Below, piece by piece: positions 16,492-30,855 of a DNA stretch of 64,000 bases; within the stretch, counting starts at the first letter, position 1; every line of letters begins with the position of its first letter. The translations under genes and the position numbers were made by a program. Source of the DNA: an uncultured bacterium (GTDB taxonomy: Bacteria > Desulfobacterota > GWC2-55-46); assembly GCA_905339405.1 (NCBI GenBank), contig CAJPGC010000034.1:3052-67051 (forward strand), in the 5' to 3' direction. A model generated the notes under the pieces. It saw only the letters and a program-made list of their open reading frames with translations. It searched no databases and had not been told where the DNA came from.

Positions 16492-16794
16492 GTGAACGAA
16501 CTTACCGGCCGCCAGAAAATAATAGAGGCTTTGAAGGGCCAGATGCTTACAGCCCGTGAGATATCCCAGGCCGTCGGCATAAAGGAAAAAGAGGTTCTCG
16601 AGCACCTGCCGCACATCGCCAGGTCTCTAGGCGCGCATGGAACCCAGGGGCCATCTCTTTTGGTGGAGCCGTCGACGTGCCTTGCGTGCGGCTTTGTCTT
16701 CAGGAAAAGGGAGAGGCTCAAGACCCCATCGAAGTGCCCTGTATGCAGGTCCGAGGAGATAACCGAGACAAGGTTCGGGGTCTTTGAACAATGA
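16492..16794 (+). CDS. Transcriptional regulator with HTH domain fused to a C-terminal Zn-ribbon (COG3357-like)
   Basis: HTH region LTAREISQAVGIKEKEVLEHLPHIARSL plus CLACG...CPVCRS Zn ribbon. A likely GTG start at 16492 is chosen over the ORF-track start at 16420. It overlaps the next gene start (ATGA). Confidence 0.55.
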   Translation: MNELTGRQKIIEALKGQMLTAREISQAVGIKEKEVLEHLPHIARSLGAHGTQGPSLLVEPSTCLACGFVFRKRERLKTPSKCPVCRSEEITETRFGVFEQ

Positions 16795-17726
16795 TAAAAC
16801 AACTGGCCTCAGCCATTGCCGCAGCTTCCATACCGCTTTTGCCGCTTTGCGCCCATGCCGCCCCGGAAAGCCAGGAGCTTTCAATATCCATCGGCAAAAG
16901 GTCGGACAACCTCGACTGGAACATAGCGGGCCTCTCTCGGTCAGGGGATTTCGTCAACGTCCTTTCCGAGCTTACATGGTCGGACGTGGAAAGCCAGGAG
17001 ATAAGGGGCAGCGCTAGGGTCTTCATGAACAGGTATTTCCTCAAAGGCGAAGCCGGGGTCGGCTTCATCACCGGAGGAGTGAACCAGGACTCGGATTTCC
17101 TCAATAACAACAGGACATTCGAGTACTCGAGGTCGAACAACTCCTCCGACGACGGCACTGTCTGGGACTTGTCCGGCGGTCTTGGCTACCTTTACGAATT
17201 CAAGGCGCTGGGCGGCAGGTTCGACCTCATTCCCATTGCCGGGCTTTCATACCACAAGCAGAACCTCACCTTGACCGACGGGGTCCAGACCATATCCACG
17301 CCAGGGCTGACCGGGCCGCTTGGTCCTTTCTCCGGTCTTCACAGCACCTACGAGGCCCGCTGGGCAGGGCCCTGGGCAGGGGCCGATTTTTCTTATCAGA
17401 GGGGAAAACTCAAGGTTTACGGGAGCTTCGAGTACCATCTTGCCTATTATTTGGCACAGGCCAACTGGAACCTCAGGGGGGATTTCGCCCACCCGGTGAG
17501 CTTCGAGCACTGGGCTACCGGAAAGGGGATTGTCTTTTCAGCCGGCACGGAGTATAATATCGCCCGTAACTGGTCTTTTGCCGCTGGCTTCGAGGCAAGC
17601 GACTTTCAGGCAACTGACGGGACGGACAGGACCTATTTCTCCGGAGGCGGGGCCGCAGACACGCCCCTTAACGAGGTCAACTGGGATTCGCTGTCAGGCT
17701 TTTTCGGCTTCAATTACAGGTACTGA
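16791..17726 (+). CDS. Outer-membrane beta-barrel protein (omptin/OMP-like fold) with signal peptide
   Basis: Signal peptide ...PLCAHAAPE. Alternating amphipathic beta-strand pattern. C-terminal aromatic ...FGFNYRY, an OMP signature. The next gene starts 3 nt after its stop. Confidence 0.5.
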   Translation: MIKQLASAIAAASIPLLPLCAHAAPESQELSISIGKRSDNLDWNIAGLSRSGDFVNVLSELTWSDVESQEIRGSARVFMNRYFLKGEAGVGFITGGVNQDSDFLNNNRTFEYSRSNNSSDDGTVWDLSGGLGYLYEFKALGGRFDLIPIAGLSYHKQNLTLTDGVQTISTPGLTGPLGPFSGLHSTYEARWAGPWAGADFSYQRGKLKVYGSFEYHLAYYLAQANWNLRGDFAHPVSFEHWATGKGIVFSAGTEYNIARNWSFAAGFEASDFQATDGTDRTYFSGGGAADTPLNEVNWDSLSGFFGFNYRY

Positions 17727-17728
17727 AG

Positions 17729-18127
17729 ATGGACCGAAACCTCTCCGGCTTTGCCGTCTTCCTTTTGCTCTTCGCGTATTCCACGATTACATTCGCAGAG
17801 CCGCTTCCGTCCTCGCTTGACCCGGGGAGCGCCGAGTGCGTCTCATGCCACCAGGACTCGATAACAGTAAACGAGCCGTTCGAGGTATGCCACCAGGGCG
17901 GCTGCGACCATCCTGTCGGGGTAAGCTATCAGTCGTTTTCTTCGCGGAACAGGGGGCTCGTCCCTGCCGATAAGCTCGACCCGGCCATAACTCTCGTGGA
18001 CGGCAAGATGGGCTGCCTTGCCTGCCATACGCCCTATGACGCGGCCGCCCACGAGACGGCCGGAAATTCCATGCTCTCGGTCGACAACAAAGGCAGCGCG
18101 CTTTGCGCGGCCTGCCACAGGAAATAG
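17729..18127 (+). CDS. Periplasmic triheme c-type cytochrome (paralog 1)
   Basis: Signal peptide. Three CxxCH motifs (CVSCH, CLACH, CAACH) plus a conserved C-x4-CDHP motif. Confidence 0.75.
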   Translation: MDRNLSGFAVFLLLFAYSTITFAEPLPSSLDPGSAECVSCHQDSITVNEPFEVCHQGGCDHPVGVSYQSFSSRNRGLVPADKLDPAITLVDGKMGCLACHTPYDAAAHETAGNSMLSVDNKGSALCAACHRK

Positions 18128-18251
18128 CCGCTCAAGTTTTTGACCGCACGGCCGAAGTAATCCTCAGGAACATCCCCGCTCCATGAGAGAGCCTTCACGT
18201 GGGTTCGCCTTCTAACCGTCTGCAAGCAGACCACCATTCGCGAGTGTACTC

Positions 18252-18668
18252 ATGAATTACGCTTTTGCAGCCCTTTTGTTCTCCATCCTCACACTGTTCG
18301 GCCTCTCCGGCACCTCCGGCGCGATGGACAAGGAATCTCTCGAATGCCTCGGCTGCCATGACGCTGCCGTGGCAACCGACGTGACCTTTCAGGTCTGCTC
18401 GGAGCCGGACTGCGACCACCCGTTCGGGATAGACTATCTTACCCTTGCGCTGTCGAACAAGGGCCTCAAAAACCCGTCGTTGCTGCCCCAGCCGATAAAG
18501 CTCGTCAACAACTCGACGATAGGCTGCGGCACGTGCCACGTACCCTTCAAGAAGAACGACCACTCCATACTCTCCAGCATGAGGAACCTTTACCCCGAGA
18601 TACCCGACCCGATGCTCGTCATGGACAACAGGCAGAGCCAGCTTTGCTTCGGCTGCCATTCAAAATAA
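18252..18668 (+). CDS. Periplasmic triheme c-type cytochrome (paralog 2)
   Basis: Signal peptide. CLGCH, CGTCH, CFGCH and the same C-x4-CDHP motif. It is collinear with paralog 1. Confidence 0.75.
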   Translation: MNYAFAALLFSILTLFGLSGTSGAMDKESLECLGCHDAAVATDVTFQVCSEPDCDHPFGIDYLTLALSNKGLKNPSLLPQPIKLVNNSTIGCGTCHVPFKKNDHSILSSMRNLYPEIPDPMLVMDNRQSQLCFGCHSK

Positions 18669-18675
18669 TTGAAAA

Positions 18676-18800
18676 TCGCTATTTTCCCTGATCTCTTCGT
18701 CAGGATGAAAATAAAAATGCTCTCATATTGACATATATGTTCCGCTTTTTATTTTCACCCTTCCTTGACCTCAGAAAAAAATAGCTGATTTTCAGGGTAC
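18676..18800. repeat. Intergenic element of about 125 bp, copy 1 (duplicated at 20376-20500)
   Basis: tttccctgatctcttcgtcagg...aaataaaaatgctc.catattg.c.atatatg...cgctttttatttt..cccttcct.gacctcagaaaaaa. About 85 percent identity to copy 2 by eye. It contains a cctga/tcagg hairpin and a TTGACA box. Confidence 0.55.
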
Positions 18801-18846
18801 CCATCAGTAGAAAAATAAGGAGGCGTGCCAGCCGGGAATAAATCCC

Positions 18847-18875
18847 TTGACACCCCGGCTAAGTTGTATTATAAA
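18847..18875 (+). promoter_or_regulatory. Sigma70-like promoter driving the SAM riboswitch leader
   Basis: TTGACA (18847-18852), a 17-nt spacer, then TATAAA (18870-18875). The riboswitch starts about 20 nt downstream. Confidence 0.55.
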
Positions 18876-18895
18876 TCACACTACATTTTAATAGC

Positions 18896-19060
18896 AGTAT
18901 CTTATCACGAGTGGCAGAGGGACTGGCCCGTAGAAGCCACAGCAACCGGTTCCGCGCAAGCGGAATGTCAGGTGCTAACTCCAGCAAGGCTTGCAAGCCT
19001 TGAAAGATAAGAACAGGTCAAGCCATTGAGCCTCTTCTTATCAAGAAGAGGTTTTTTTTT
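18896..19060 (+). ncRNA. SAM-I (S-box) riboswitch with terminator expression platform
   Basis: tcttatcacgagtggcagagggactggcccgtagaagccacagcaacc...ggtgctaactccagcaagg...gaaagataaga matches the S-box consensus (P1 cttatca/gataag, GGGACUGGCCC core, GGUGCUAA). It is followed by cctcttcttatcaagaagagg plus a T9 terminator. Confidence 0.85.
19029..19060 (+). terminator. Riboswitch-controlled intrinsic terminator
   Basis: cctcttcttatcaagaagagg hairpin plus ttttttttt. The 5' arm (tcttatcaaga) can alternatively pair with the P1 3' strand, forming an anti-terminator. Confidence 0.75.
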
Positions 19061-19106
19061 GTCTTCCGCCGGGCACCGGGGTGGAATAATAAGGAGGAGA
19101 ACACGG

Positions 19107-20363
19107 ATGAGCTACATGAAGGCGTTGAAATGCAGGGAGTGCGGGAAGGAATATCCCAAGGAAGCGCTCCACGTCTGCGAGCTGTGCTTCGGCCCGCTTG
19201 AGGTCGCTTACGAGTACGAAAAGATAAAGGGCGTGCTCACTAGGGAAGTGATAGAGAAGAGGGCTCCCAACATGTGGCGCTACAAGGAACTCCTCCCCAT
19301 CGACGGAGAGCCTACAGTCGGAGCGCAGGTCGGGTACACGCCTCTCGTGAAGGCGGACAACCTCGCGAAGGCTTTGGGCGTAAAAGAGATATACATAAAG
19401 AACGACGCGGTCAACTACCCGACGCTCTCGTTCAAGGACAGGGTCGTCTCCGTGGCCCTCTCGAGGGCAAGGGAGCTGGGCTTCAAGATAGCGGCCTGCG
19501 CCTCGACCGGCAACCTCGCCAACTCGGTCGCGGCCAACGCCGCTGCCGCCGGCATGGAAAGCTTCGTCTTCATCCCCTCTGACCTCGAGCAGACCAAGAT
19601 AGTCGGCACGCTCGTGTACGGCGGCACCGTCGTGGGCATCAAGGGCACTTACGACGAGGTCAACAGGCTCTGCAGCGAGATAGCCGGAAAATACGGCTGG
19701 GCCTTCGTGAACATAAACATCAGGCCTTACTACGCCGAGGGCTCAAAGACCTTCGGGTACGAGATAGCCGAGCAGCTCGGCTGGAAGCTCCCGCAGAACA
19801 TAGTAGTGCCGATGGCCGGGGGCTCTCTTATAACCAAGATACACAAGGCCTTCAAGGAACTCTCTATACTTGGCTTCGTGGGCCCTGTAACCACAAAGGT
19901 GTTCGGCGCGCAGGCAGCAGGGTGCTCGCCCATAATCAACGCCGTGAAGGAAGGCACCGAGCTCATACGCCCGGTCAACAAGCCCAATACCATAGCCAAG
20001 TCGCTGGCCATTGGAAACCCGGCCGACGGCTACTACTCCGCCAAGGTCATGAGAGAGTCCGGCGGTTGGGGCGAGAACGTAACCGACGAGGAGATAATAG
20101 ATTCGATGAAGCTCCTCGCGGAGACCGAGGGCATATTCGCGGAGACCGCCGGCGGGGTCACGCTGGGCTCGGCCAGAAAGCTCATCGACAGCGGCAGGAT
20201 ATCCAGGGACGAGTCGATCGTCGTGTGCGTGACTGGCAACGGGCTCAAGACCCAGGAAGCGCTCGCGGGCAAGATAAACCCGCCGACCATAATAAACGCC
20301 AGGCTTCAGGAGTTTGACGACCTGGTGAAGGCGGGCGGCAAGGAGTACGCTGTAAGGGCGTAG
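19107..20363 (+). CDS. Threonine-synthase-family PLP enzyme with N-terminal Zn-ribbon; candidate MetM-like O-phosphohomoserine-dependent homocysteine synthase (or threonine synthase)
   Basis: RBS aaggagga then ATG 19107 (MSYMKALKCRECGKEY). PLP lysine region SFKDR. Fold-type II PLP motifs. It lies immediately downstream of a SAM riboswitch and upstream of sulfur-carrier genes. Confidence 0.8.
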   Translation: MSYMKALKCRECGKEYPKEALHVCELCFGPLEVAYEYEKIKGVLTREVIEKRAPNMWRYKELLPIDGEPTVGAQVGYTPLVKADNLAKALGVKEIYIKNDAVNYPTLSFKDRVVSVALSRARELGFKIAACASTGNLANSVAANAAAAGMESFVFIPSDLEQTKIVGTLVYGGTVVGIKGTYDEVNRLCSEIAGKYGWAFVNINIRPYYAEGSKTFGYEIAEQLGWKLPQNIVVPMAGGSLITKIHKAFKELSILGFVGPVTTKVFGAQAAGCSPIINAVKEGTELIRPVNKPNTIAKSLAIGNPADGYYSAKVMRESGGWGENVTDEEIIDSMKLLAETEGIFAETAGGVTLGSARKLIDSGRISRDESIVVCVTGNGLKTQEALAGKINPPTIINARLQEFDDLVKAGGKEYAVRA

Positions 20364-20375
20364 GCTGTCTTTCGG

Positions 20376-20500
20376 AAATCGTTCTTTTTCCTGATCTCTT
20401 CGTCAGGGCGTAAATAAAAATGCTCACATATTGCAATATATGCTGCGCTTTTTATTTCCGCCCTTCCTCGACCTCAGAAAAAAGCTCCGATTTCGAGAGT
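20376..20500. repeat. Intergenic element of about 125 bp, copy 2
   Basis: See copy 1. It is located directly after the stop of the ThrC-like gene. Confidence 0.55.
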
Positions 20501-20611
20501 AAGCCTTGGGCCATTTTCCGCTTCTATTTTCAGCCTTTTTTCTGGTATCATGGTACCATCCGAATTGGCCGCAAGCACGGCAAAGAGAGCGAAGGGAGAT
20601 TACTGTTTAAA

Positions 20612-21568
20612 ATGACAGACCATTTCATAGAAGATAAGACTACAAAAGTGACTGTAGCCGTCGACGGCACAGGGGCGGCGCAGAAGATAGACTTCAACGA
20701 CCTGAAGTCTGGCGGCTTCATAAAGCAGAGGCAGAAGGACCTGTTTACCGTGCGCCTGAGGTGCCCGGGCGGCAGGCTTTCAACCGAAAAGCTCGTCGAG
20801 ATATCGAAGATAGCCCACAAGTACAGCAAAAAGGGAGTGGTCCACTTCTCTTTCCGCCAGTCCCTCGAGATACTCTACGTAGACTACAAGGAGTTCAGCA
20901 CCGTCGTGGCCGAGCTCGAGAAGATCGGCCAGAAGGTCGCCTCCTGCGGCCCCAGGGTGAGGGTCCCGACCGCCTGCGGCGGCTGTGAGTACAACCCCAA
21001 CGGCCTCACTGACACGCAGAAGATGGCTGATATGGTCGACAAGACCTTCTTCGGCACGCCCACGCCGCATAAGTTCAAGACCTCTTTTTCCGGCTGCCCC
21101 ATCGACTGCGCCAGGACGAAGGAGATGGACATGGGCTTCCAGGGCGTAGTAGATCCGAAGTGGGAAGAGGAAGCCTGCACGGGCTGCACCATCTGCTCTG
21201 AGGCCTGCAAGGAAGACGCCATAGCCTCCGACCCGGACACCGGCAAGCCGATATTCGACCCCATAAAGTGCATATTCTGCGGGGACTGCATAAGGGCCTG
21301 CCCGACCGAAGCGTGGAAGCCGAAGAGGTACGGCCACATAGTGAGGCTCGGCGGCAAGCACGGCCGCCATCCGATGGAGGCCGTCGAGGTCTGCCAGTTC
21401 CTTCCGGACGAGAAGGTCGGGGATGCCATCAAGATGACCATCGACTGGTACAACGCGAACGGCAAGAGGGGCGAGAGGATAGGCAATACCATAAAGAGGG
21501 TAGGCCTCGAGAGCTACCTGAAGCACATGGAACCTGTATTCCAGAACGCCGCGAAAGCCGGGGCATAG
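20612..21568 (+). CDS. Dissimilatory-type sulfite reductase-like protein (nitrite/sulfite reductase siroheme half-domain with inserted 2x[4Fe-4S] ferredoxin domain)
   Basis: Siroheme/FeS coupling cysteines (SCGPRVRVPTACGGCE ... FSGCPIDCAR). Ferredoxin motifs CTGCTICSEAC and CIFCGDCIRACP. ATG 20612 (MTDHFIE) is chosen. Confidence 0.7.
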   Translation: MTDHFIEDKTTKVTVAVDGTGAAQKIDFNDLKSGGFIKQRQKDLFTVRLRCPGGRLSTEKLVEISKIAHKYSKKGVVHFSFRQSLEILYVDYKEFSTVVAELEKIGQKVASCGPRVRVPTACGGCEYNPNGLTDTQKMADMVDKTFFGTPTPHKFKTSFSGCPIDCARTKEMDMGFQGVVDPKWEEEACTGCTICSEACKEDAIASDPDTGKPIFDPIKCIFCGDCIRACPTEAWKPKRYGHIVRLGGKHGRHPMEAVEVCQFLPDEKVGDAIKMTIDWYNANGKRGERIGNTIKRVGLESYLKHMEPVFQNAAKAGA

Positions 21569-21575
21569 GAGCCAT

Positions 21576-21800
21576 ATGAGCGACTCTACTATAGACTTGC
21601 GCGGGGTCATGTGCCCCATAAACTTCGTTAAGACGAAGCTGAAGCTCGAGATGATGGAGCCCGGAGAGATACTCGAGGTCATACTCGACTCCGGCGACCC
21701 CATCCAGAACGTGCCCAAGTCGATAAAGGAAGAGGGGCACAAGATTGTCGAAGTAAAAAAAGAGGGCGATTTTTTCCGGCTTAAAGTCCAAAGAAGCTGA
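21576..21800 (+). CDS. tusA: TusA/SirA-family sulfurtransferase
   Basis: 74 aa. DLRGVMCPINFVKTKL has the CPxP active-site motif. Confidence 0.85.
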   Translation: MSDSTIDLRGVMCPINFVKTKLKLEMMEPGEILEVILDSGDPIQNVPKSIKEEGHKIVEVKKEGDFFRLKVQRS

Positions 21801-21935
21801 TCAGACTGCTGAAAACGCTCCATCTGTGTTGTTGTCTTCGTCGCTCGTCATTGCGTCGTACAAGCAACGTACGCCTCATGCCTCGCTCCTCGACGCCTGG
21901 CATCTGAAGCGTTTTGAGCAGCCAGAATAAAGACG
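21801..21935. repeat. MITE-like element (family copy, CAGRCTGCTGAAAAC terminal inverted repeats)
   Basis: tcagactgctgaaaacg ... cgttttgagcagccaga inverted termini. Internal ccatctgtgttgttgtc head and gtcattgcgtcgtac...gtacgcctcatg palindrome. Confidence 0.5.
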
Positions 21936-21976
21936 CAGTTAAGTAAACTGAATTATATACAGGAGGAACCAGAAGT

Positions 21977-22258
21977 ATGTCGATAAAGGTCAGGATACCG
22001 ACCCCGCTCAGGAAGCTTACGAACGGCTCTGACGAGGTCAGCGCAACAGGCAGGAACGTAGGAGAGATAATCGAGGACCTCGAGAAGGCCTATCCCGGAC
22101 TCAAGGAGAGGATCTGCGAAGGGGACGGCAAGCTCCGCAGGTTCGTCAACATCTACCTGAACGACGAGGACATCAGGTTCAAGAACAACCTTGAGACCGA
22201 GCTCAAGGAGAACGACGAGCTTTCCATAATCCCAGCCATAGCGGGAGGCGCAGCTTGA
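21977..22258 (+). CDS. MoaD/ThiS-family sulfur-carrier protein (CysO/HcyS-like) with GG-AA C-terminus
   Basis: 93 aa beta-grasp-like protein ending ...IIPAIAGGAA. There are two residues after the Gly-Gly, as in HcyS-Ala type carriers that need JAMM processing. Confidence 0.8.
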   Translation: MSIKVRIPTPLRKLTNGSDEVSATGRNVGEIIEDLEKAYPGLKERICEGDGKLRRFVNIYLNDEDIRFKNNLETELKENDELSIIPAIAGGAA

Positions 22259-22491
22259 AAAAAAGGGTGTATCTCACCTATCCGAAGGAACAGGTCAAGG
22301 AACCGCTCCTTTACCAGGTAGGGAAGAACTTCGAGGTCGTGACCAACATCAGGCAGGCGAGCGTTTCCGACAAGCTTGGCCTCGTGGCTCTCGAGCTCGA
22401 CGGCGAGCCTGAGGAGATCGAGAAGGCGATACAGTTCCTTGTGGACAAGGGCGTCAAGGTCGAGCCCATAGAGCTCGACATAATAGAGTAG
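22255..22491 (+). CDS. Stand-alone NIL-domain protein (MetN C-terminal-like regulatory/ligand-binding domain)
   Basis: 78 aa. TTG start overlaps the carrier gene stop (TTGA). LLYQVGKNFEVVTNIRQASV...LGLVALELDGEPEEIEKAIQFL resembles the NIL domain. Confidence 0.55.
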   Translation: MKKRVYLTYPKEQVKEPLLYQVGKNFEVVTNIRQASVSDKLGLVALELDGEPEEIEKAIQFLVDKGVKVEPIELDIIE

Positions 22492-22763
22492 CCCTGGAGG
22501 TCCGGACTCTCTCAAAACCGCCGGTCCGGGTACTGTACAGGGCAGGTCATGAGAGCGAAAAGGATTGTTTTTTCTTGAAAAACCCCGGCATTCAGCTGCC
22601 GGGGTTTTTTTTATTTCCAGAGGCGCCAAGCCGCTCAAATTATCTTGACAGGGCTACTAAGGTATTATAAACTTGAGAAGCTTACTAAGGTATTTTTCCG
22701 CTCAGGCAGCGCCCGAAATCCCGGTTCAGGAAAAGTTCACCCCCCGTGGGGAGGTATTATAAT

Positions 22764-23717
22764 ATGAGAGGACAGAGGCTGCTTGAAAACCAGCCAGCAA
22801 GGCAGTATTCAATGGCAAAAGGCTCAGTAATAAACCTTGTCGGAAATACCCCGTTAGTCAGGATAAACAGCATAACAAGGGACCTGCCTCCCGAGGTAGA
22901 AGTTTACGCCAAGCTCGAGGGCTATAACCCAGGAGGCTCGGTCAAGGACAGGGCCGCCCTCAGCATGATACTTGACGCCGAGGCGAGCGGCAGACTGACC
23001 CCCGACAAGATAATCCTTGATTCGACCTCAGGCAACACAGGCATAGCCTACGCGTGGATAGGCGCCGTGAAGGGCTATAGCGTCGAGCTCGTCGTCCCGG
23101 CCAACGTAAGCGAGGAAAGAAAGAAGATTTTGAACGCTTTCGGCGCCCATGTCATCTATTCGAACCCTCTGGAGGGTTCTGACGGCGCCATCAGGCTCGC
23201 CTGGAAACTCTACGTCGAAAACCCCGAAAAATACTGCAAGCTCGACCAGTACAACAACCCCTCGAACCCGCTCGCCCATTTCAACGGCACAGGGGCCGAG
23301 ATAATAGAGCAGACCGAGGGCAGGGTAACTCATTTCGTGGCCTCGATCGGCACCGGCGGCACCATCATGGGCACCGGCAGAAGGCTCAAGGAATTCAACC
23401 CCGACATACAGGTACAGGCCGTCGAGCCTGCCACGGCCTTCCACGGCCTCGAAGGGTTGAAGCACATGGCCTCTTCGATAGTCCCCGGCATATACCACGA
23501 AGAAGAGCTCGACGAGAAGATACCTGCCCCGACCGAAGAGTCGTATACGATGGCCAAGAGGCTTGCAAGGGAAGAAGGCCTTCTTGTCGGCCAGTCTTCC
23601 GGGGCTGCCATGTGGGGAGCCCTGGAAGTCGCCAAAAAGCTCAAGAAGGGCGTAGTGGTCGTCATATTCCCGGACGGCGGAGATAAGTATCTGTCAACGC
23701 GCCTCTGGGAAGCGTAA
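22764..23717 (+). CDS. cysM: Cysteine synthase (CysM/CysK family, PLP fold-type II; probable thiocarboxylate-dependent O-phosphoserine/O-acetylserine sulfhydrylase)
   Basis: GNTPLVRI, the PLP lysine in NPGGSVKDRAA, and the GTGGT glycine loop (SIGTGGTIMG). RBS ggggagg lies upstream of ATG 22764. Confidence 0.85.
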   Translation: MRGQRLLENQPARQYSMAKGSVINLVGNTPLVRINSITRDLPPEVEVYAKLEGYNPGGSVKDRAALSMILDAEASGRLTPDKIILDSTSGNTGIAYAWIGAVKGYSVELVVPANVSEERKKILNAFGAHVIYSNPLEGSDGAIRLAWKLYVENPEKYCKLDQYNNPSNPLAHFNGTGAEIIEQTEGRVTHFVASIGTGGTIMGTGRRLKEFNPDIQVQAVEPATAFHGLEGLKHMASSIVPGIYHEEELDEKIPAPTEESYTMAKRLAREEGLLVGQSSGAAMWGALEVAKKLKKGVVVVIFPDGGDKYLSTRLWEA

Positions 23718-23720
23718 ACA

Positions 23721-23940
23721 GGCTGCTGAAAACCCATAGCGAGCGTAAGCGAGCGAATAGAAAACGTTATTTCCTTAGGTTTCGAAGCTCACTGCGGCTT
23801 GCCGCTGGGAGCTTCAAAAATCTATCTCCATCTGCTTTGTTGTCTTTGTCGCGCGTCATTGAGGCGTACAAAAGAGTACGCCTCATGACTTGCTCCTCGA
23901 CGCCTCGCATATGGAGTTTTTGAGCAGCCTGAACAAAGTC
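23721..23940. repeat. MITE-like element (same family as 21801-21935) carrying a ~90-bp nested insertion
   Basis: caggctgctgaaaac ... tttttgagcagcctg inverted termini. Extra segment ccatagcgagcgtaagcgagcgaatag...ggagcttcaaaa lies between the TIR and the conserved ctccatctgctttgttgtc block. Confidence 0.5.
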
Positions 23941-23980
23941 GGAATTTTCCAGTAATCAGCTAAAAAGGAGTGACCCTCAG

Positions 23981-24436
23981 ATGGGGCTTTTCGGTTTCGG
24001 CAAGACAGCCGTACACATATCCAGGTCGGTATACGAGGAAATACTCAGTCACGCGAAGGAAGCTTACCCGAACGAGTGCTGCGGAGTGCTCGTCGGCGCG
24101 AACTACGGCGGCGAGCGCAAGATATTCGAATCCCACAGGGCGACCAACGTCAACACGGACAGGGCCCACGACAGGTACATAATCGACCCGAGGGAGTTCA
24201 ACCTCATCGACAAGATGGCAAGGTCGCAGTCGATGGACGTCATGGGCTTTTACCATTCTCATCCAGACCATCCGGACAAGCCCTCCCAGACCGACAGGGA
24301 ATGGGGACAGACCGGCTACTCCTACATCATCGTCGCCGTCAAGGGCGGCAAGGAGACTTCGATGAGGAGCTGGATGATAGAGGACGACACGGCCCCGTTC
24401 ACTGAAGAGAAGATAAAGGTACTCGAAAACCAGTAA
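23981..24436 (+). CDS. JAMM/MPN+ metalloprotease (Mec+/CysO-cysteine peptidase, HcyD-like)
   Basis: JAMM motif HSHPDHPDKPSQTD (H-x-H-x7-S-x2-D) and upstream conserved Glu in NECCGVLVG. Confidence 0.85.
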   Translation: MGLFGFGKTAVHISRSVYEEILSHAKEAYPNECCGVLVGANYGGERKIFESHRATNVNTDRAHDRYIIDPREFNLIDKMARSQSMDVMGFYHSHPDHPDKPSQTDREWGQTGYSYIIVAVKGGKETSMRSWMIEDDTAPFTEEKIKVLENQ

Positions 24437-24558
24437 GCTTTTTTATATATAAAACGAACTCATCGGCCCGGGGCTTTGAAGCCTTGCGGCTTTGGTGCGC
24501 CCCCGAGGGGCATTTTCGCATTTATACTCTGTATATATGAGCCGGAGGAGCCTGTACA

Positions 24559-25383
24559 ATGGATTTCACAGAAGAGCAGATTGAGCGGTATTCGAGGCAT
24601 ATAATACTCCCGGAGGTGGGGGGCAAGGGGCAGGCTAAGCTCCTTAAAAGCAAGGTCTTCGTGCTGGGCGCGGGCGGCCTGGGCTCGCCTTCGCTCCTTT
24701 ATCTCGCGGCTGCCGGCGTGGGCACCATCGGCATAGCCGACGGCGACTCGGTCGACATGAGCAACCTCCAGCGCCAGATAATCCATAACAACGAGCGCGT
24801 CGGAGTGCCAAAGGTCCACTCCGCGAAAGAGACCATAAACAAGCTGAACCCCGACGTCAACGTGCAGCCCTTCCACGGCAGGCTCACCGTCGACAACATA
24901 AGGGAGATAATAAGGGATTACGACGTCGTCCTGGACGGCTCGGACAACTTCCCCACCCGCTTTCTCATGAACGACGCCTGCTTCTTCGAGCAAAAGCCCC
25001 TTGTCTCGGGCTCGATGTTCAGGTTCGACGGCCAGGTCTCGGTCTTCCACCCGAGAAAGGGCTTCCCGTGCTACAGGTGCCTGTACCCGGAGCCCCCGCC
25101 AAAGGGGCTCGTGCCGAGCTGCCAGGAAGCGGGAGTTCTCGGAGCGCTCGCCGGAGTCATCGGCGTACTCCAGGCCGTGGAGACAATAAAACTCCTCCTT
25201 GGCATCGGTGACACCCTCGAGGGCCATCTCATGATATTCGACGCCCTCAAGATGAACTTTCGCAAGGTCAGGGTCAGGAAAGACCCCGAGTGCGCCCTGT
25301 GCGGAGAGAACGCCACAATAAAAGAACTCGTGGCCTATGAAGAACAGGCCTGCGAATACAAACCGGTCACCTGCGAACACTAA
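24559..25383 (+). CDS. MoeB/ThiF-type E1 adenylyltransferase for sulfur-carrier activation (no rhodanese domain)
   Basis: YSRHIILPEVGGKGQAKL. Glycine-rich ATP loop VLGAGGLGSP. CxxC pairs (CYRC ... CALC). 274 aa, so it lacks a C-terminal rhodanese module. Confidence 0.85.
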   Translation: MDFTEEQIERYSRHIILPEVGGKGQAKLLKSKVFVLGAGGLGSPSLLYLAAAGVGTIGIADGDSVDMSNLQRQIIHNNERVGVPKVHSAKETINKLNPDVNVQPFHGRLTVDNIREIIRDYDVVLDGSDNFPTRFLMNDACFFEQKPLVSGSMFRFDGQVSVFHPRKGFPCYRCLYPEPPPKGLVPSCQEAGVLGALAGVIGVLQAVETIKLLLGIGDTLEGHLMIFDALKMNFRKVRVRKDPECALCGENATIKELVAYEEQACEYKPVTCEH

Positions 25384-25588
25384 ACCGGCAGGCTCGCTGA
25401 TTTATTGAGAGAACCTTTTTGTAAAAAGGTTCTCTCAAACTCTCTCCAAAAACTTATAGTTCTTCCCGGGACAACCCCCTTAAGGGGGCTGTCCCGGGAA
25501 CTTAAAGTCTTTGAAGGGGGTCTGGGGGAGACTTTCTACAGAAAGTTTCCCCCAAAAAATCCAGCGGTCTGACGGGCAAGCGAGAATA

Positions 25589-26788
25589 ATGCACAATTAC
25601 CTGGACAATCCGGCGTCCCTCAAGATAGACCTGATGCTTCGGGGCATAAGGATGGAAGACCCCGTCGTGAAGGCCTGGGCCTGCGGCTGTTCGGGCATTG
25701 ACATGCTTCTGCCGCAGGACACGCTCGTCAACATACCCTGCATGGAAGAGTTCACGAGGAACTCGCCGTACACGGTGAAGAGGGCGGGGGAGAGGTATTT
25801 CATTACGGACGGCAGGGCCGAGGTCGAGGTGAAACTCGTGGAAAGGCCGGCCTTCTATTCGAGGAAGACTACCTCCGGGGTGCAGTTCTCGGAGATTGCC
25901 TCCGTTCACGGCAGCTACACGGTAATAACGCCTTCGCCGAGGTGCGACTTTTTCAACCGCAGCATCGAGTGCAGGTACTGCGCCGGGAATTTCGACGTAA
26001 AGGGCTCATCCGACGTCGTCTACACGATAGAGGACATACTGGAGACGGTCGAGGCGGTCCTCAAAGAGAAGGCCTCGGAGGTCATATACCTGTCCATCGG
26101 CTTCAGCCAGGGCGACGACGGCGGAATAGCGTTTTTGAAGCCTTACATACAGGCCATTAAGAAGAGCTTCAACTGCCTTGTGGCCGTGGAGGCGCTGCCG
26201 CCCAGGGACAACCGCTGGATAGACGAGACGTACGCGATGGGGGCCGACTCGGTCCTTTATAACCTCGAGATATTCGACAAGGAGCTCTTCGAGCTGATAT
26301 GCCCGGGCAGGGCTTCCCTCGTGGGGCGCAAAAGATACCTCGAGTCGCTGAAGTACGCCGCGAAGGTATTCCCCAACGGCACTGTGGCTTCCCACCTCAT
26401 TGTGGGGCTCGAGCCTCCCGGGTCTACCTGCATGGGGATAGACTGCTTCACGGACATGGGAGTAGTGCCCATCCTTCCCATCTACAGGCCCTCGGCCGGG
26501 AAGGCGTTGAGGATAGAGCCTCTGACGACTGAGATAATACTGCCGGTCTACAAGCACCTTTACAACGCTGTCAAGAAAAACGGGATAAACCTCTCCTGGG
26601 TGCGTGACATAAGCATGGTGACGACCCCGGCCGAGATACGGGGCCTGGTCGACGGCGGCAAGGGCGGCACTCTCATGGAGAGCTTCTACAAGTCCAGGAT
26701 CGGGCTCAAGGCCGCCTGGGGGCTCTCTACGATAAGGAGGAAGCTCAGGGTCGTAGGCAGCGATGACTCAGACCCTTCGAAACACTGA
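25589..26788 (+). CDS. Radical-SAM-like TIM-barrel protein with atypical cysteine motif (C-x8-C-x2-C); function unknown
   Basis: SPRCDFFNRSIECRYCAG followed by rSAM-like glycine-rich and beta/alpha barrel blocks (VIYLSIGFSQGDDGG, HLIVGLEPPGS). ATG 25589 is chosen. Family not recognised. Confidence 0.4.
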   Translation: MHNYLDNPASLKIDLMLRGIRMEDPVVKAWACGCSGIDMLLPQDTLVNIPCMEEFTRNSPYTVKRAGERYFITDGRAEVEVKLVERPAFYSRKTTSGVQFSEIASVHGSYTVITPSPRCDFFNRSIECRYCAGNFDVKGSSDVVYTIEDILETVEAVLKEKASEVIYLSIGFSQGDDGGIAFLKPYIQAIKKSFNCLVAVEALPPRDNRWIDETYAMGADSVLYNLEIFDKELFELICPGRASLVGRKRYLESLKYAAKVFPNGTVASHLIVGLEPPGSTCMGIDCFTDMGVVPILPIYRPSAGKALRIEPLTTEIILPVYKHLYNAVKKNGINLSWVRDISMVTTPAEIRGLVDGGKGGTLMESFYKSRIGLKAAWGLSTIRRKLRVVGSDDSDPSKH

Positions 26789-28235
26789 TGCTGGAGTTCT
26801 TTGCGTGAGTTTACAAATCGACACCCGGCCAATCTGGCTGATACTGGCCATCAAATGCCTGAGGCCGGTATTTTTCCTGGTCCTTGCCTCGCTGTTCCTG
26901 TATTTCATCTGGATGCCCGCACCCGTGGGCCTCTCAATAGAGGGCCAGCGGGCCATCGCCGTATTCCTCCTTTGCCTCGTCCTGTGGGTATCTAACGCGA
27001 TACCGCTGGCGATAACGGGCATACTCGCCATCGTGCTGGTGCCGGTCCTAGGGATACTCCCGAACAAGGTCACTTATTCCCTTTTCGGGAACGAGGCCGT
27101 CTTTTTCATACTCGGCGCGTTCATCCTCGCGGGCGCGGTCATGCACTCGGGCATATCGAACAGGCTCGCCCTGTACATACTCGACAGGTTCGGGGGCTCG
27201 CCGAGGGGTCTTCTCATAACGGTATTCCTGCTGGCGGCTGCGCTCTCGTTCATAATGTCCGAGCACGCCGTGGCGGCCATGCTCTTCCCCATAGTCATCG
27301 AAATATCCAAGAGCCTGGGCCTCAAGCCCGGGAAGTCCAATTATGGTAAGCTCCTTTTCTTCTCCATGGCCTGGGGTTGCATAATCGGCGGCGTGGCGAC
27401 GTTCCTGGGGGGGGCGAGGGTGCCGCTAGCCGTGGGCATATTGAAGGAGACGACCGGCAGCCAGATAGGCTTTCTCGACTATTCCATCGCCGTCTTCCCG
27501 CTCGTCGTCATACTCCTTTTCGCGGGCTACATGCTCCTTACAAGGATATTCCCCATCGACATAACCGGGGTCGAGGAAGCCCACGGGGTCCTGAAGAAAA
27601 GGCTCAAGGCGCTTGGAAAACTGAGCTTCAGCGAGTACTCGGTCGGGGCGGTCCTCGCCATTACGGTCTTCGCCTGGATAGTCCTGGGCGAGAAGTTCGG
27701 GCTGGCGGCCATCGCGCTGGCCTCTGTCGTGGCCCTTTTCGTCTTCAGGATGGTAAGGTGGAAAGATATAGAAGAATACGTCAATTGGGGTATAATACTC
27801 ATGTACGGCGGGGCCATCGTGCTGGGGTCTGCCCTCGACAAGAGCGGCGCGGCCAAGTGGCTCGTCGGCATGGCTATAGGAGACTGGGCGAGCGAGCCCT
27901 GGGCGGCTTTCGCGCTCTTCTCGTTCCTTTCGATACTGCTTACGGCCGCCATGAGCAACGCGGCCGTCATCGCCGTGCTCCTGCCTGTGAGCATCGGCAT
28001 GGCTCAGACGCTCTCCATCGACCCCGTCATGCTCACTTACGCCATAGCGGTACCGGCAGGCCTCGATTTCATGTTCCCGATGGGCACGCCGGCCATCGCG
28101 ATAGCGGCCTCCTCGAACTACATAACCGTCAAGGAGAGCGCCAAGGGCGGCTTCGTCATGTTCGTCGCCGCATGGGTCGTTTTCAACCTCGTGGCGGCCT
28201 TCTGGTGGCCGCTCATAGGCATGGGCTATAGATGA
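26763..28235 (+). CDS. DASS/SLC13-family anion:Na+ symporter (candidate sulfate permease)
   Basis: Polytopic protein with duplicated hairpin-loop architecture, about 14 TM. The context is next to APS reductase and ATP sulfurylase. The start may lie downstream of 26763 (it overlaps the previous gene). Confidence 0.75.
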   Translation: MTQTLRNTDAGVLCVSLQIDTRPIWLILAIKCLRPVFFLVLASLFLYFIWMPAPVGLSIEGQRAIAVFLLCLVLWVSNAIPLAITGILAIVLVPVLGILPNKVTYSLFGNEAVFFILGAFILAGAVMHSGISNRLALYILDRFGGSPRGLLITVFLLAAALSFIMSEHAVAAMLFPIVIEISKSLGLKPGKSNYGKLLFFSMAWGCIIGGVATFLGGARVPLAVGILKETTGSQIGFLDYSIAVFPLVVILLFAGYMLLTRIFPIDITGVEEAHGVLKKRLKALGKLSFSEYSVGAVLAITVFAWIVLGEKFGLAAIALASVVALFVFRMVRWKDIEEYVNWGIILMYGGAIVLGSALDKSGAAKWLVGMAIGDWASEPWAAFALFSFLSILLTAAMSNAAVIAVLLPVSIGMAQTLSIDPVMLTYAIAVPAGLDFMFPMGTPAIAIAASSNYITVKESAKGGFVMFVAAWVVFNLVAAFWWPLIGMGYR

Positions 28236-28747
28236 AGAAGATACTCCTCGTGCTGTCGTACTCGGGTTTTTCAGGCAAGGCCATCGACGAGGCCGTAGCC
28301 AGGGCCAAAAAGGAGAAGGCGGCGCTTGCCGCCCTTTACCTTCTGGAAGGCGGGGCGGCCGAGAGCGTCTTCGACAAGTTTTCGGATATCGGCTTCATGG
28401 GCGACAGGCCTTCCGAGGACCTCTCCAGGCTCCTCATGAAGGAGTCGAGGCAAAGGGGTTACGAAGCGCTCGGCAAGGTGCAGATAAAGGCGATGGAAGA
28501 GGGCGTCCCGTTCGAGCCGCTGGTGGAAGAGGACGCAACTGTTGAAAAGGTCCTTGCGGTCATCGAAAAGACAGACCCTTCCGCCGTCTACGTGCTCAAG
28601 AGGAAGCAGAGGGCGTTTTTCAAGTATTTTACAAGATCGCTCGCCGACGAGCTTGCCGAAAGGGCAGGCTGCGAGGTGGCGGTGATTACCGAAGAAGGCG
28701 AACAGGAAAAGGAGGACGGTAATGTCAAAGGTATGGACGGAAAGTGA
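28232..28747 (+). CDS. Usp-like alpha/beta domain protein
   Basis: 171 aa. Usp-like N-terminus (KILLVLSYSGFSGKAIDEAV) but no clear ATP-binding glycine motif. Acidic tail. Confidence 0.4.
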   Translation: MKKILLVLSYSGFSGKAIDEAVARAKKEKAALAALYLLEGGAAESVFDKFSDIGFMGDRPSEDLSRLLMKESRQRGYEALGKVQIKAMEEGVPFEPLVEEDATVEKVLAVIEKTDPSAVYVLKRKQRAFFKYFTRSLADELAERAGCEVAVITEEGEQEKEDGNVKGMDGK

Positions 28748-29420
28748 ACTGAAAAATATAAGCGAAAGCCTCGAAGGAAAGGCGCCCGAAGAAGCGGTAA
28801 GGTGGGCGGTAGAGAACTTCGGGAAAAAAGAGCTTTCACTGGCGTGCAGTTTCGGGGCCGAGGACGTCGTGCTGGTAGACATGCTCGTGAAGATAAAGCC
28901 GGACGCGAGGATATTCTACCTGGACACGGACCTGCTCTTCAAGGAGACCCACGAACTCATGGAGAGGGTAAAAGCGAAATACGGCGTTGCCCCCGAGAGG
29001 TACGGCGCGAAAGCAACGCTTGAGCAGATGGAAAAGGACCTGGGCCCGGAGCTCTGGAAGAGGGAGCCGGACAAGTGCTGCGATATTAGGAAGATGGTCC
29101 CGCTGGCCGAGGCGCTATCCGAGCTCCGCTGCTGGATAACCGGCATAAGGCGCGACCAGGCCCCGACGAGGGCTAACGCTCCGGTCGTGAGCTGGGACGC
29201 GAAGTTCGGCCTCGTGAAGGTCAATCCGCTCGTCAGGTGGACCACTAAAGACGTCTGGGACTACATCACGAAGAATAACGTGCCGTACTGCACCCTTCAC
29301 GACAAGAACTTCCCGTCGATAGGCTGCGAGCCCTGCACCAGGCCGGTGGCTCCCGGGGAAGACCCGAGGGCCGGCAGGTGGGCCGGTTTCCAGAAGACCG
29401 AGTGCGGCCTTCACAAGTAG
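28722..29420 (+). CDS. cysH: Assimilatory adenylylsulfate (APS) reductase, thioredoxin-dependent, [4Fe-4S]-containing CysH
   Basis: PAPS/APS reductase fold with the C-terminal ECGLH motif. CC (KCCDIRK) and CxxC (GCEPC) cysteine pairs are characteristic of APS-specific enzymes. Confidence 0.85.
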   Translation: MSKVWTESELKNISESLEGKAPEEAVRWAVENFGKKELSLACSFGAEDVVLVDMLVKIKPDARIFYLDTDLLFKETHELMERVKAKYGVAPERYGAKATLEQMEKDLGPELWKREPDKCCDIRKMVPLAEALSELRCWITGIRRDQAPTRANAPVVSWDAKFGLVKVNPLVRWTTKDVWDYITKNNVPYCTLHDKNFPSIGCEPCTRPVAPGEDPRAGRWAGFQKTECGLHK

Positions 29421-29424
29421 GAAA

Positions 29425-29575
29425 AGATTTGTTGTCATTCTGAAGGAGCAAAGCGGCTGAAGAATCTCGTGCCTGCATCAAAAGACGAGATTCTTCGCTG
29501 CGCTCAGAATGACGAAATTTATAAGCATGAATCATTGTGGCAAACCGGAGCAATACTGCATTTGCTCCGCCCGCG
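29425..29575. repeat. MITE/REP-like palindromic repeat (gtcattctga...tcagaatgac type; related to 13349-13500)
   Basis: ttgttgtcattctgaaggagcaaagcggctgaagaatctcg ... cgagattcttcgctgcgctcagaatgacgaaattt. Confidence 0.55.
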
Positions 29576-29620
29576 ATGTTCTTTATCCTATAAAAAGAAA
29601 ATCCCCAGGAGGTATTTTTT

Positions 29621-30788: not shown

Positions 30789-30855
30789 TACACAAAAGCC
30801 GCTCTCTGACAGAGAGCGGCTTTTTTTTGACTAATAAAGGGGAGAGGTTTTTTTT

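Follow-up and report, generated by a model that had tools for sequence, protein, structure and literature searches.

A SAM-I riboswitch upstream of a predicted MetM-type homocysteine synthase gene in an uncultured deltaproteobacterial lineage

The 64 kb of DNA analysed here (the window) carry a SAM-I riboswitch directly ahead of a gene for a ThrC-family enzyme, and this arrangement is very probably an OFF switch on a methionine-branch operon whose first gene encodes a MetM-type, carrier-dependent homocysteine synthase. The MetM/MetO pathway is known from Streptomyces albulus (Hasebe et al. 2024, Appl Environ Microbiol 90:e01247-24), and the concept of a SAM riboswitch controlling metM was already published in 2024 for Streptomyces and is left unchanged by the present locus, which matches that pathway and is hence a further example of it and not a new system.

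The leader RNA and its competing folds

The preliminary description of this DNA had recognised a SAM-I consensus aptamer and had suggested comparing it with Rfam. The comparison bore this out: the leader matched RF00162 (SAM-I) at 18899-19013 on the forward strand with 87.4 bits, well above the gathering score of 44.4 (E 2.3e-19), the alignment spanned model positions 1-108 of 108, and all of the motifs quoted at the time were present (GAGGGACUGGCCC, GGUGCUAA and P1 UCUUAUCA / GAUAAGA). The aptamer was the sole Rfam match within the 64 kb window. One open reading frame that runs across the aptamer (18825-19010, 61 aa, GTG start) was treated as spurious. The elements of the leader and the gene that it precedes are as follows.

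18847-18875 (+), sigma-70-like promoter: -35 TTGACA (18847-18852), 17-nt spacer, -10 TATAAA (18870-18875); consensus match only
18899-19013 (+), SAM-I (S-box) aptamer, RF00162; P1 formed by 18900-18907 with 19006-19013
19006-19042 (+), predicted antiterminator: GAUAAGAA (19006-19013) with UUCUUAUC (19035-19042), P1 open
19028-19062 (+), expression platform: intrinsic terminator with a 12-bp stem, the loop AUC and a U9 run
19107-20363 (+), metM-like gene: PLP enzyme of ThrC fold whose N-terminus carries a four-Cys zinc ribbon; predicted homocysteine synthase dependent on O-phosphohomoserine

The promoter was read by eye, as the consensus scanner demands a T at the last -10 position and hence missed it, and the predicted transcription start lies about 15-25 nt ahead of P1. 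The minimum-free-energy fold of the leader consisted of the four-way aptamer, with its four helices, followed by the terminator hairpin (-60.8 kcal/mol, z = -4.2 against shuffles). The aptamer pairing is supported by covariation across 34 homologous metM-linked leaders, in which 93.2% of cells were paired and 15 pairs showed compensatory changes; none of 500 shuffles attained the observed pairing and covariation values, and sliding the partners by 1-3 columns, as a control, left 39-47% paired.

The terminator hairpin (19028-19054) comprises the core CCUCUUCUU / AAGAAGAGG and the loop AUC, followed by the U9 run. Its 5' arm, given as tcttatcaaga, had been described as a duplicate of P1. Positions 19036-19046 do repeat the P1 5' strand (18900-18907), but the repeat runs from the end of the 5' arm through the loop and into the first bases of the 3' arm, so that this part of the description needed a small correction. 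The terminator/antiterminator switch proposed with it was nonetheless recovered in silico: with the P1 5' strand omitted, the minimum-free-energy fold of 18996-19062 was the antiterminator, at -20.7 kcal/mol compared with -14.7 kcal/mol for the terminator alone, and the two structures are mutually exclusive in these predictions, with the P1 3' strand as their common element. Binding of SAM would close P1 (18900-18907 with 19006-19013), leaving the hairpin at 19031-19051 and the U9 run to stop transcription before the coding region; when SAM is scarce, the P1 3' strand would pair with 19035-19042 as the antiterminator, and polymerase would enter the first gene.

The enzyme and its clade

The metM-like open reading frame encodes 418 aa and has an ATG start and an AAGGAGG ribosome-binding site. 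Its product proved to be a ThrC-family PLP enzyme with a zinc ribbon, as had been claimed from the outset: it scored 230.8 bits against PALP, the ribbon motif CxxC...CxxC is formed by Cys9, 12, 24 and 27 (three invariant and one nearly invariant among homologues), the PLP lysine K110 in SFKDRVV is invariant among homologues, and the predicted structure (mean pLDDT 89.3, pTM 0.90) has the ThrC fold, with a target-normalised TM of about 0.86 to solved threonine synthases.

A tree against validated ThrC proteins had also been proposed, and in a neighbour-joining ordering the window protein fell within a clade apart from the validated threonine synthases, with 55-84% identity to the multi-phylum clade members that show carrier synteny and 35-38% identity to four validated solved threonine synthases (2zsj, 1uim, 6cgq and 2d1f). 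Near the PLP lysine and in the phosphate-binding loop this clade shows distinct motifs, namely SFKDRVV, STGNLANSV and N(I/V)N(I/L)RPYYAEGSKT, whereas the validated threonine synthases have SFKDRGM, ASTGNTSASA and VN-SVNPxR(I/L)EGQKT. The window protein lacks the active-site motifs of validated threonine synthases: it has SFKDRV and N-I-N-I-R-P-Y-Y in place of SFKDRG and N-S-x-N-P-x-R, and where the Thermus enzyme has Arg160 it carries Tyr209, which is invariant. Omi et al. (2003) are said to have assigned roles to the residues N154, S155 and R160 in the phosphate-binding loop of T. thermophilus threonine synthase.

Judged by its sequence, the window protein would belong to the MetM clade and not with the validated threonine synthases. 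Its assignment to the MetM family is based on an actinomycete locus of the same layout, together with the 51.6% identity that has been published for S. albulus MetM and a clade member from a cyanobacterium (PMC12172450). In the actinomycete Nonomuraea, an RF00162 match (68.7 bits) lies upstream of the metM-like gene and a MetO-like gene directly downstream, which is the layout reported for S. albulus; the Nonomuraea protein is 55% identical to the window enzyme over its full length, including the zinc ribbon. No Streptomyces homologue was present among the proteins and loci returned by a search seeded with the actinomycete representative and by tblastn of plasmid records, the former giving only Micromonosporaceae among its named matches and the latter Nonomuraea and haloarchaeal thrC genes.

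The association of the enzyme with a sulfur carrier and with the riboswitch is conserved well beyond the window. Among 80 related loci from many phyla, a ThiS/MoaD-type carrier gene was found nearby downstream of the metM-like gene in 72, directly after it in most, and a SAM-I riboswitch was found upstream in 34, that is, in 34 of the 52 non-cyanobacterial loci; it was also found upstream in two actinomycete loci. In the 34 loci it was always on the strand of the metM-like gene, 10-256 nt upstream in 33, and a cross-check with Rfam in 14 loci placed all 14 above the gathering score. SAM-I control is absent from the cyanobacterial clade members, and outside Actinomycetota SAM-I-controlled metM is widespread. 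Twelve loci lacking SAM-I were checked for other SAM riboswitch classes and gave no Rfam match of any family.

Carrier genes and the extent of the controlled transcript

The genes for the carrier, a JAMM protease and a MoeB-type E1 all lie within 5 kb downstream of the metM-like gene on the same strand, in two putative transcription units. These genes and the other features around them are as follows.

18670-18800, family D2 palindrome, copy 1, just upstream of the riboswitch promoter
20374-20500 (+), family D2 imperfect palindrome, copy 2, 127 nt, between metM and the next gene
20612-21568 (+), small sulfite-reductase-like protein: NIR_SIR domains with an inserted 2x[4Fe-4S] ferredoxin domain
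21576-21800 (+), TusA-family sulfurtransferase, Cys in motif CPIN; PF01206 80.6 bits
21977-22258 (+), ThiS/MoaD-type sulfur-carrier protein (MetO/CysO-like); NF041918 66 bits, PF02597 63.5 bits
22255-22491 (+), stand-alone NIL-domain protein, 78 aa; PF09383 59.4 bits
22577-22610 (+), strong intrinsic terminator: 14-bp stem, 7 GC pairs, T-run; first strong forward-strand terminator after the riboswitch
22764-23717 (+), CysM-type cysteine synthase; TIGR01138 386 bits, TIGR01136 355 bits
23981-24436 (+), JAMM/Mec-type metalloprotease (desampylase-like); NF041370 91.9 bits, PF01398, PF14464
24559-25383 (+), MoeB/ThiF/MoeZ-type E1 adenylyltransferase (carrier activation); NF006444 415.8 bits, NF047750 345.6 bits
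25589-30824 (+), rest of the second transcription unit: radical SAM protein, DASS anion symporter, Usp, CysH (APS/PAPS reductase) and sulfate adenylyltransferase

In the mechanism proposed for this locus, the MetM-type enzyme would eliminate phosphate from O-phosphohomoserine and add sulfur at the gamma carbon to yield homocysteine, the sulfur donor being the C-terminal thiocarboxylate of the ThiS/MoaD-like carrier. The carrier (21977-22258), which is 48% identical to the Nonomuraea MetO-like protein, ends in ...IPAIAGG-AA, so that its C-terminus needs trimming; the JAMM protease is predicted to remove the Ala-Ala tail and to free the product from the carrier, and the trimmed carrier would then be adenylated by the MoeB-type E1. 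The adjacent small sulfite reductase and TusA would supply its sulfur and would themselves be fed by Sat and CysH, encoded in the same cluster; the carrier would probably also serve the neighbouring CysM in cysteine synthesis.

The transcript under riboswitch control likely ends at the terminator at 22577-22610. The absence of a strong terminator between this element and the riboswitch is the one ground for taking the genes past metM as co-transcribed, which would make the SAM-controlled transcript probably metM-sir-tusA-carrier-NIL. The genes from cysM onward would have their own promoter and lie outside this transcript: a promoter-like site at 22645-22673 stands ahead of cysM, with a TTGACA...GTATTATAAA at 22645-22671 that is similar to the promoter of the riboswitch leader (consensus match only), and a strong terminator at 30794-30824 closes the second transcription unit. 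On a weaker reading, SAM control may extend to the sulfite reductase, TusA and the shared carrier, in which case SAM would restrain the loading of sulfur for cysteine as well as for methionine.

The two D2 copies share 87% identity, and their predicted hairpins gave z = -6.1 and -6.5. D2 may represent a mobile or REP-like sequence; alternatively, it may form an RNA hairpin in the gap that follows metM. The palindromic D2 and D4 elements of the intergenic gaps could conceal promoters or processing sites. As conserved regulatory elements both repeats were discarded, since they are absent from every related locus.

The gene for the NIL-domain protein has a TTG start that overlaps the carrier stop codon by 4 nt. 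A NIL gene adjoins the carrier gene in about 23 of the 80 loci, in several phyla, and in three relatives (L006, L007 and L010) NIL is fused in frame directly after the carrier Gly-Gly, a fusion that would require cleavage by JAMM, as in ubiquitin fusion processing. No report of a NIL-carrier association was found in the literature searched, and the NIL protein is tentatively put forward as a possible third member, so far undescribed, of the metM-metO module under SAM-riboswitch control. In MetN the NIL domain has a methionine-binding role, and by analogy the protein might be a regulatory subunit that senses methionine or homocysteine; another possibility is that it is a chaperone of the carrier-enzyme complex.

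Alternative readings and related systems

It is very unlikely that the first gene encodes a genuine zinc-ribbon threonine synthase and that the SAM riboswitch coordinates the making of threonine with methionine status where the two pathways branch at O-phosphohomoserine. The names and models do point in this direction: the protein exceeded the equivalog cut-offs of the NCBIfam threonine-synthase models (TIGR00260, 284.2 against 167.1; NF006050, 310.1 against 303), its predicted fold agrees with that of solved threonine synthases, source-named homologues were all labelled threonine synthase among both the best 120 matches to the window protein and the best 120 to its actinomycete relative, and a clade member from the cyanobacterium Microcystis acted in vitro as a threonine synthase and as a threonine deaminase and showed no clear MetM function in vivo (PMC12172450). 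These two models, however, do not separate the MetM clade, all of whose source-named members are called threonine synthase, and the GapMind authors, who describe the MetM/MetO/Mec/MoeZ pathway, call MetM commonly, or often, misannotated as threonine synthase (GapMind 2026, 10.1101/2024.10.14.618325, Appendix 4). Also in favour of a threonine synthase, no second ThrC was found in the 64 kb window. Pfam annotation of 20 further open reading frames there gave nothing tied to the aspartate or methionine pathways, and the called genes of about 10 kb past its 3' end, on a matching metagenome contig, included neither thrC nor aspartate-pathway genes. (This adjoining DNA encodes Rnf, a P-type ATPase and others.) Against a threonine synthase stand the low identity to validated enzymes, the differing PLP-lysine and phosphate-loop motifs, the carrier gene found in most of the related loci, and the Thermodesulfovibrio locus L024, in which the metM-like gene, carrier and NIL are followed by another ThrC whose motifs are those of canonical threonine synthases, so that the two paralogues coexist. 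An OFF switch would, moreover, cut threonine synthesis at high SAM, opposite to the plant threonine synthase, which is activated by SAM. Such a switch would fit a homocysteine-forming enzyme and not a threonine synthase, since the latter competes with methionine synthesis for O-phosphohomoserine.

The remaining alternatives concern the sulfur donor and the substrate. That homocysteine is made from O-phosphohomoserine with free sulfide from the adjacent sulfite reductase, the carrier, JAMM and MoeB serving only CysM, is unlikely. It would agree with the position of the sulfite-reductase-like and TusA genes directly after metM, the carrier not being adjacent in the window, with the second transcription unit, where CysM, JAMM and MoeB make up the classical set of the CysO type, and with a Micromonospora riboswitch-metM locus that has no adjacent carrier gene; but the carrier directly follows the metM-like gene in most related loci, many of them without cysM nearby, and MetO thiocarboxylate is the donor in the published pathway (10.1101/2024.10.14.618325). 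Another phospho-amino acid substrate, as for a cysteate synthase or an O-phosphoserine sulfhydrylase in a general sulfur-assimilation cluster, is extremely improbable. The gene does sit in a cluster for sulfate assimilation and cysteine synthesis, and cysteate synthase is likewise of the ThrC family, but the cysteate-synthase model scored 70 bits against a cut-off of 324.9, which ruled that enzyme out, CysM is already encoded in the window, and the conservation of SAM-riboswitch control across phyla points to the methionine branch. The MetM-like homocysteine synthase that the preliminary description had proposed is thus supported by the clade, its motifs, carrier synteny, riboswitch linkage, the local machinery and the literature.

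Like the window, the S. albulus system has a ThrC homologue that bears the annotation threonine synthase, together with a ThiS/MoaD-type carrier, a Mec/JAMM hydrolase and a MoeZ/MoeB E1, and its metM is preceded by a SAM riboswitch (PMC12172450, citing Hasebe et al. 2024). The window differs from it in that the sulfite-reductase-like and TusA genes stand between metM and the carrier gene, the carrier ends in a GG-AA tail, its gene is overlapped by a NIL-domain gene, the locus lies inside a complete sulfate-assimilation and CysM cluster, and the host is an uncultured 'Deltaproteobacteria/Thermodesulfobacteriota' MAG lineage. With the classical S-box (SAM-I) regulon of Bacillota the window shares the aptamer family, the terminator/antiterminator logic and control of a methionine-branch gene, but metM is outside that regulon and the host of the window is Gram-negative and uncultured.

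Two other carrier-dependent systems bear comparison. The CysO/CysM/Mec+ system of Mycobacterium tuberculosis, reportedly described by Burns et al. (2005), makes cysteine from O-phosphoserine without SAM-riboswitch control. The window has the corresponding CysM, ThiS-like carrier, JAMM and MoeB/MoeZ-type E1, with the carrier probably feeding CysM, and adds a second PLP enzyme, of the ThrC family, that would be gated by SAM. Wolinella succinogenes is said to use the HcyS/HcyD/HcyF/MetY protein-thiocarboxylate methionine pathway, attributed to Krishnamoorthy and Begley (2011), a study cited in PMC5764234. It resembles the window in the removal of one or more residues past the carrier Gly-Gly by JAMM, in its E1-type activator and in its clustering with sulfite reductase and sulfate-assimilation genes; its acceptor enzyme, however, is MetY, an O-acetylhomoserine sulfhydrylase of a different fold, in contrast to the ThrC homologue of the window, which is predicted to use O-phosphohomoserine.

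Riboswitch, carrier synteny and motif differences provide simple rules by which a 'threonine synthase' could be relabelled as a MetM-type homocysteine synthase. Such relabelling would close apparent gaps in the methionine pathway in many uncultured lineages, those concerned being Verrucomicrobiota, Planctomycetota, Acidobacteriota, Chloroflexota, Nitrospinota and this 'deltaproteobacterial' group. The distribution of SAM-I, which is absent in the cyanobacterial members, also bears on the current debate over the function of the cyanobacterial 'ThrC' paralogue.

Riboswitch, gene cluster and proposed transcription units

The leader of the metM-like gene, annotated as threonine synthase (ThrC), carries a SAM-I aptamer at 18899-19013 (+), where Rfam RF00162 matches over its complete model with 87.4 bits (gathering score 44.4, E 2.3e-19), the sole Rfam match within the 64 kb window. 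The preliminary description had recognised this aptamer from motifs, all of which were found, and had correctly noted that the terminator region duplicates the 5' strand of P1. The minimum-free-energy fold of the leader comprises a four-way junction and the terminator hairpin (-60.8 kcal/mol, z = -4.2). With the P1 5' strand omitted, 18996-19062 folds best with GAUAAGAA (19006-19013) paired to UUCUUAUC (19035-19042), an antiterminator fold of -20.7 kcal/mol compared with -14.7 kcal/mol for the terminator alone, so that the classical terminator/antiterminator design proposed earlier is present. The features are as follows.

18847-18875, +, sigma-70-like promoter read from the sequence just 5' of the aptamer (TTGACA 18847-18852, 17-nt spacer, TATAAA 18870-18875)
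19028-19054, +, terminator hairpin 3' of the aptamer, 12 bp followed by nine U
19107-20363, +, regulated ORF, metM-like enzyme, 418 aa, good ribosome-binding site
20612-21568, +, small sulfite-reductase-like protein (sir) with ferredoxin insert
21576-21800, +, TusA
21977-22258, +, ThiS/MoaD-type carrier with C-terminal end AGG-AA
22255-22491, +, NIL-domain protein, 78 aa (PF09383, 59.4 bits)
22764-23717, +, CysM
23981-24436, +, JAMM protease
24559-25383, +, MoeB-type E1
25589-26788, +, radical SAM protein (NF045502 'variant rSAM', MSMEG_0568-like)
26805-28235, +, DASS transporter (anion symporter)
28232-28747, +, Usp
28722-29420, +, CysH
29623-30788, +, sulfate adenylyltransferase (sat)

Every gene in 19107-30788 lies on the + strand. 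The only strong + strand terminators 3' of the riboswitch follow NIL (22577-22610) and sat (30794-30824), and a second promoter-like site, TTGACA...GTATTATAAA, precedes cysM at 22645-22671, which together suggest two transcription units, riboswitch-metM-sir-tusA-carrier-NIL and cysM to sat. TTGACA and the 10-mer GTATTATAAA are common to this site and that at 18847-18875, which fits two separately initiated units of the sulfur cluster. The pair of radical SAM protein and DASS symporter after moeB (25589-28235) recurs in two related loci (L006 11033-13247, L007 5551-7904).

The stand-alone NIL gene overlaps the carrier stop codon by 4 nt (cTTGA). Carrier and NIL form a single ORF in three relatives (L006 7158-7787, L007 3206-3853, L010 7279-7800), with NIL directly after Gly-Gly (...AIAGG), and about 23 of the 80 related loci have NIL as a separate gene near the carrier gene, none of these loci being cyanobacterial; in one, L017, it is upstream on the opposite strand. 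No link of NIL to the MetM/MetO pathway was found in the literature that could be searched.

Several other features were observed in the window. Directly 5' of the riboswitch, 16791-18668 encodes a Pom-family outer-membrane beta-barrel protein and two small, multihaem cytochrome-like proteins with paired CXXCH motifs, an arrangement reminiscent of porin-cytochrome modules. A 127-nt imperfect palindrome flanks the riboswitch-metM module in two copies (18670-18800, 20374-20500; 87% identical), each starting right after the preceding gene's stop codon, with predicted hairpins of z about -6 and at least one compensatory change between copies; it is absent from all related loci, and three independent metagenome assemblies (L002-L004) break within copy 2. 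Another intergenic repeat of about 125 nt, roughly 85% identical between copies upstream of the carrier gene (21812-21936) and the JAMM gene (23825-23943), contains internal inverted repeats GCUGCUGAAAAC / GUUUUGAGCAGC and GAGGCGUAC / GUACGCCUC and is absent from relatives. Three copies of a 78-nt stretch (40212-40289, 45276-45353, 51668-51745; 68-71% identical), the first inside a response-regulator/histidine-kinase gene (39816-40880), are more suggestive of paralogous sensor kinases than of a repeat element.

The metM-like protein and threonine synthases

As the preliminary description stated, the product is a ThrC-family PLP enzyme with a zinc ribbon. It is of fold type II (PALP 230.8 bits), the ribbon is N-terminal and of the form CxxC...CxxC, with every cysteine invariant or almost so across homologues, and the AlphaFold model of the protein (mean pLDDT 89.3) resembles solved threonine synthases (target-normalised TM about 0.86). 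Cysteate synthase was rejected (model score 70, cut-off 324.9).

In a neighbour-joining ordering, the protein and numerous homologues of other phyla (57-84% identity) group as one block, separate from the validated threonine synthases and marked by the motifs SFKDRVV, STGNLANSV and N(I/V)N(I/L)RPYYAEGSKT, where validated enzymes have SFKDRGM, ASTGNTSASA and VN-SVNPxR(I/L)EGQKT. The last of these forms the loop that binds phosphate in the Thermus enzyme, for which Omi et al. 2003 reportedly gave the residue roles.

A genuine threonine synthase appears very improbable. This reading is favoured by NCBIfam threonine-synthase models that pass their cut-offs (310.1 vs 303; 284.2 vs 167.1), by the name threonine synthase given to every source-named close homologue among the database matches listed, and by a Microcystis member of the clade which, according to PMC12172450, has threonine-synthase and deaminase activity in vitro, so that some dual activity within the clade is possible. 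Against it, identity to four validated, solved threonine synthases (Aquifex, Thermus, B. subtilis, M. tuberculosis) is only 35-38%, the motifs are distinct, with the invariant Tyr209 aligning with Arg160 of the Thermus enzyme, and in L024 118-3098 (Thermodesulfovibrio MAG) the metM-like, carrier and NIL genes stand immediately ahead of a second ThrC gene whose product has canonical motifs, and therefore both kinds coexist. Identity, motifs and this paralogue thus set the protein apart from real threonine synthases. No canonical thrC was found in the 64 kb window or among genes called in the roughly 10 kb by which the same sequence continues past its 3' end.

Riboswitch and carrier in related loci

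Scanning one genome per species (tblastn) gave 80 loci with relatives at 57-81% identity, from Verrucomicrobiota, Planctomycetota, Acidobacteriota, Nitrospinota, Nitrospirota, Chloroflexota, Cyanobacteria and others. In 72 of them a carrier gene lies close by downstream, and in most it immediately follows the metM-like gene; a variant dependent on sulfide instead of the carrier is considered unlikely.

A covariance model made from ten leaders detected SAM-I aptamers in 34 of the 80 loci, each on the same strand as the gene and in all but one (33/34) 10-256 nt upstream of the metM-like gene. In the remaining locus, of a Candidatus Binataceae MAG (L034 5057-7260), the riboswitch precedes a moeB-like gene and then metM-carrier-cysM-NIL, so that the entire set, E1 and CysM included, seems to be under SAM control in this lineage. 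All 14 loci cross-checked with Rfam passed the RF00162 gathering score, and covariation among the 34 leaders is strong (93.2% of cells paired, 15 pairs with compensatory changes; no shuffle matched the observed values). The riboswitch occurs in 34 of 52 non-cyanobacterial loci, the 18 negatives including 4 with upstream sequence too short to judge, and in none of 28 classed as cyanobacterial; 12 riboswitch-negative loci gave no match to any Rfam family. About 1 kb downstream of its metM-like gene, an Anaerolineae MAG (L084 5418-5517) has a PYLIS_3 match (RF02510, 42.6 bits, just over the gathering score of 38).

Nonomuraea gerenzanensis has, in order, RF00162 (68.7 bits), a metM-like gene (protein 55% identical to that of the window) and a MetO-like gene whose product ends in AGG and shares 48% identity with the carrier of the window, while Micromonospora coriariae has the riboswitch and metM-like gene with no adjoining carrier gene.

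Relation to the known MetM/MetO pathway

As summarised in GapMind 2026 (10.1101/2024.10.14.618325), which took up the pathway, Hasebe et al. 2024 described MetM as a ThrC homologue converting O-phosphohomoserine to homocysteine via the MetO carrier thiocarboxylate, with Mec and MoeZ as accessory enzymes, and MetM 'is often misannotated' as threonine synthase. PMC12172450 places a SAM riboswitch upstream of S. albulus metM and reports a cyanobacterial homologue without one; the survey agrees with both statements.

Clade, synteny and regulation support membership of the window protein in the MetM family, as judged from sequence, and the earlier reading of a MetM-like homocysteine enzyme is supported by clade, carrier synteny, riboswitch linkage and the published pathway. 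The best explanation, a probable one, is a SAM-gated MetM-type homocysteine synthase. The earlier inference is probably right, and the arrangement was already known, since the MetM/MetO pathway and the metM riboswitch are published. The window departs from S. albulus MetM/MetO in four points: its host belongs to an uncultured group with 'Deltaproteobacteria bacterium GWA2_54_12' among its relatives; metM and the carrier gene are separated by sir and tusA, as in the closest relative (L005); the carrier has a GG-AA tail; and CysM and a full set of sulfate-assimilation genes share the locus, much as in the HcyS cluster of Wolinella and the CysO/CysM system of mycobacteria.
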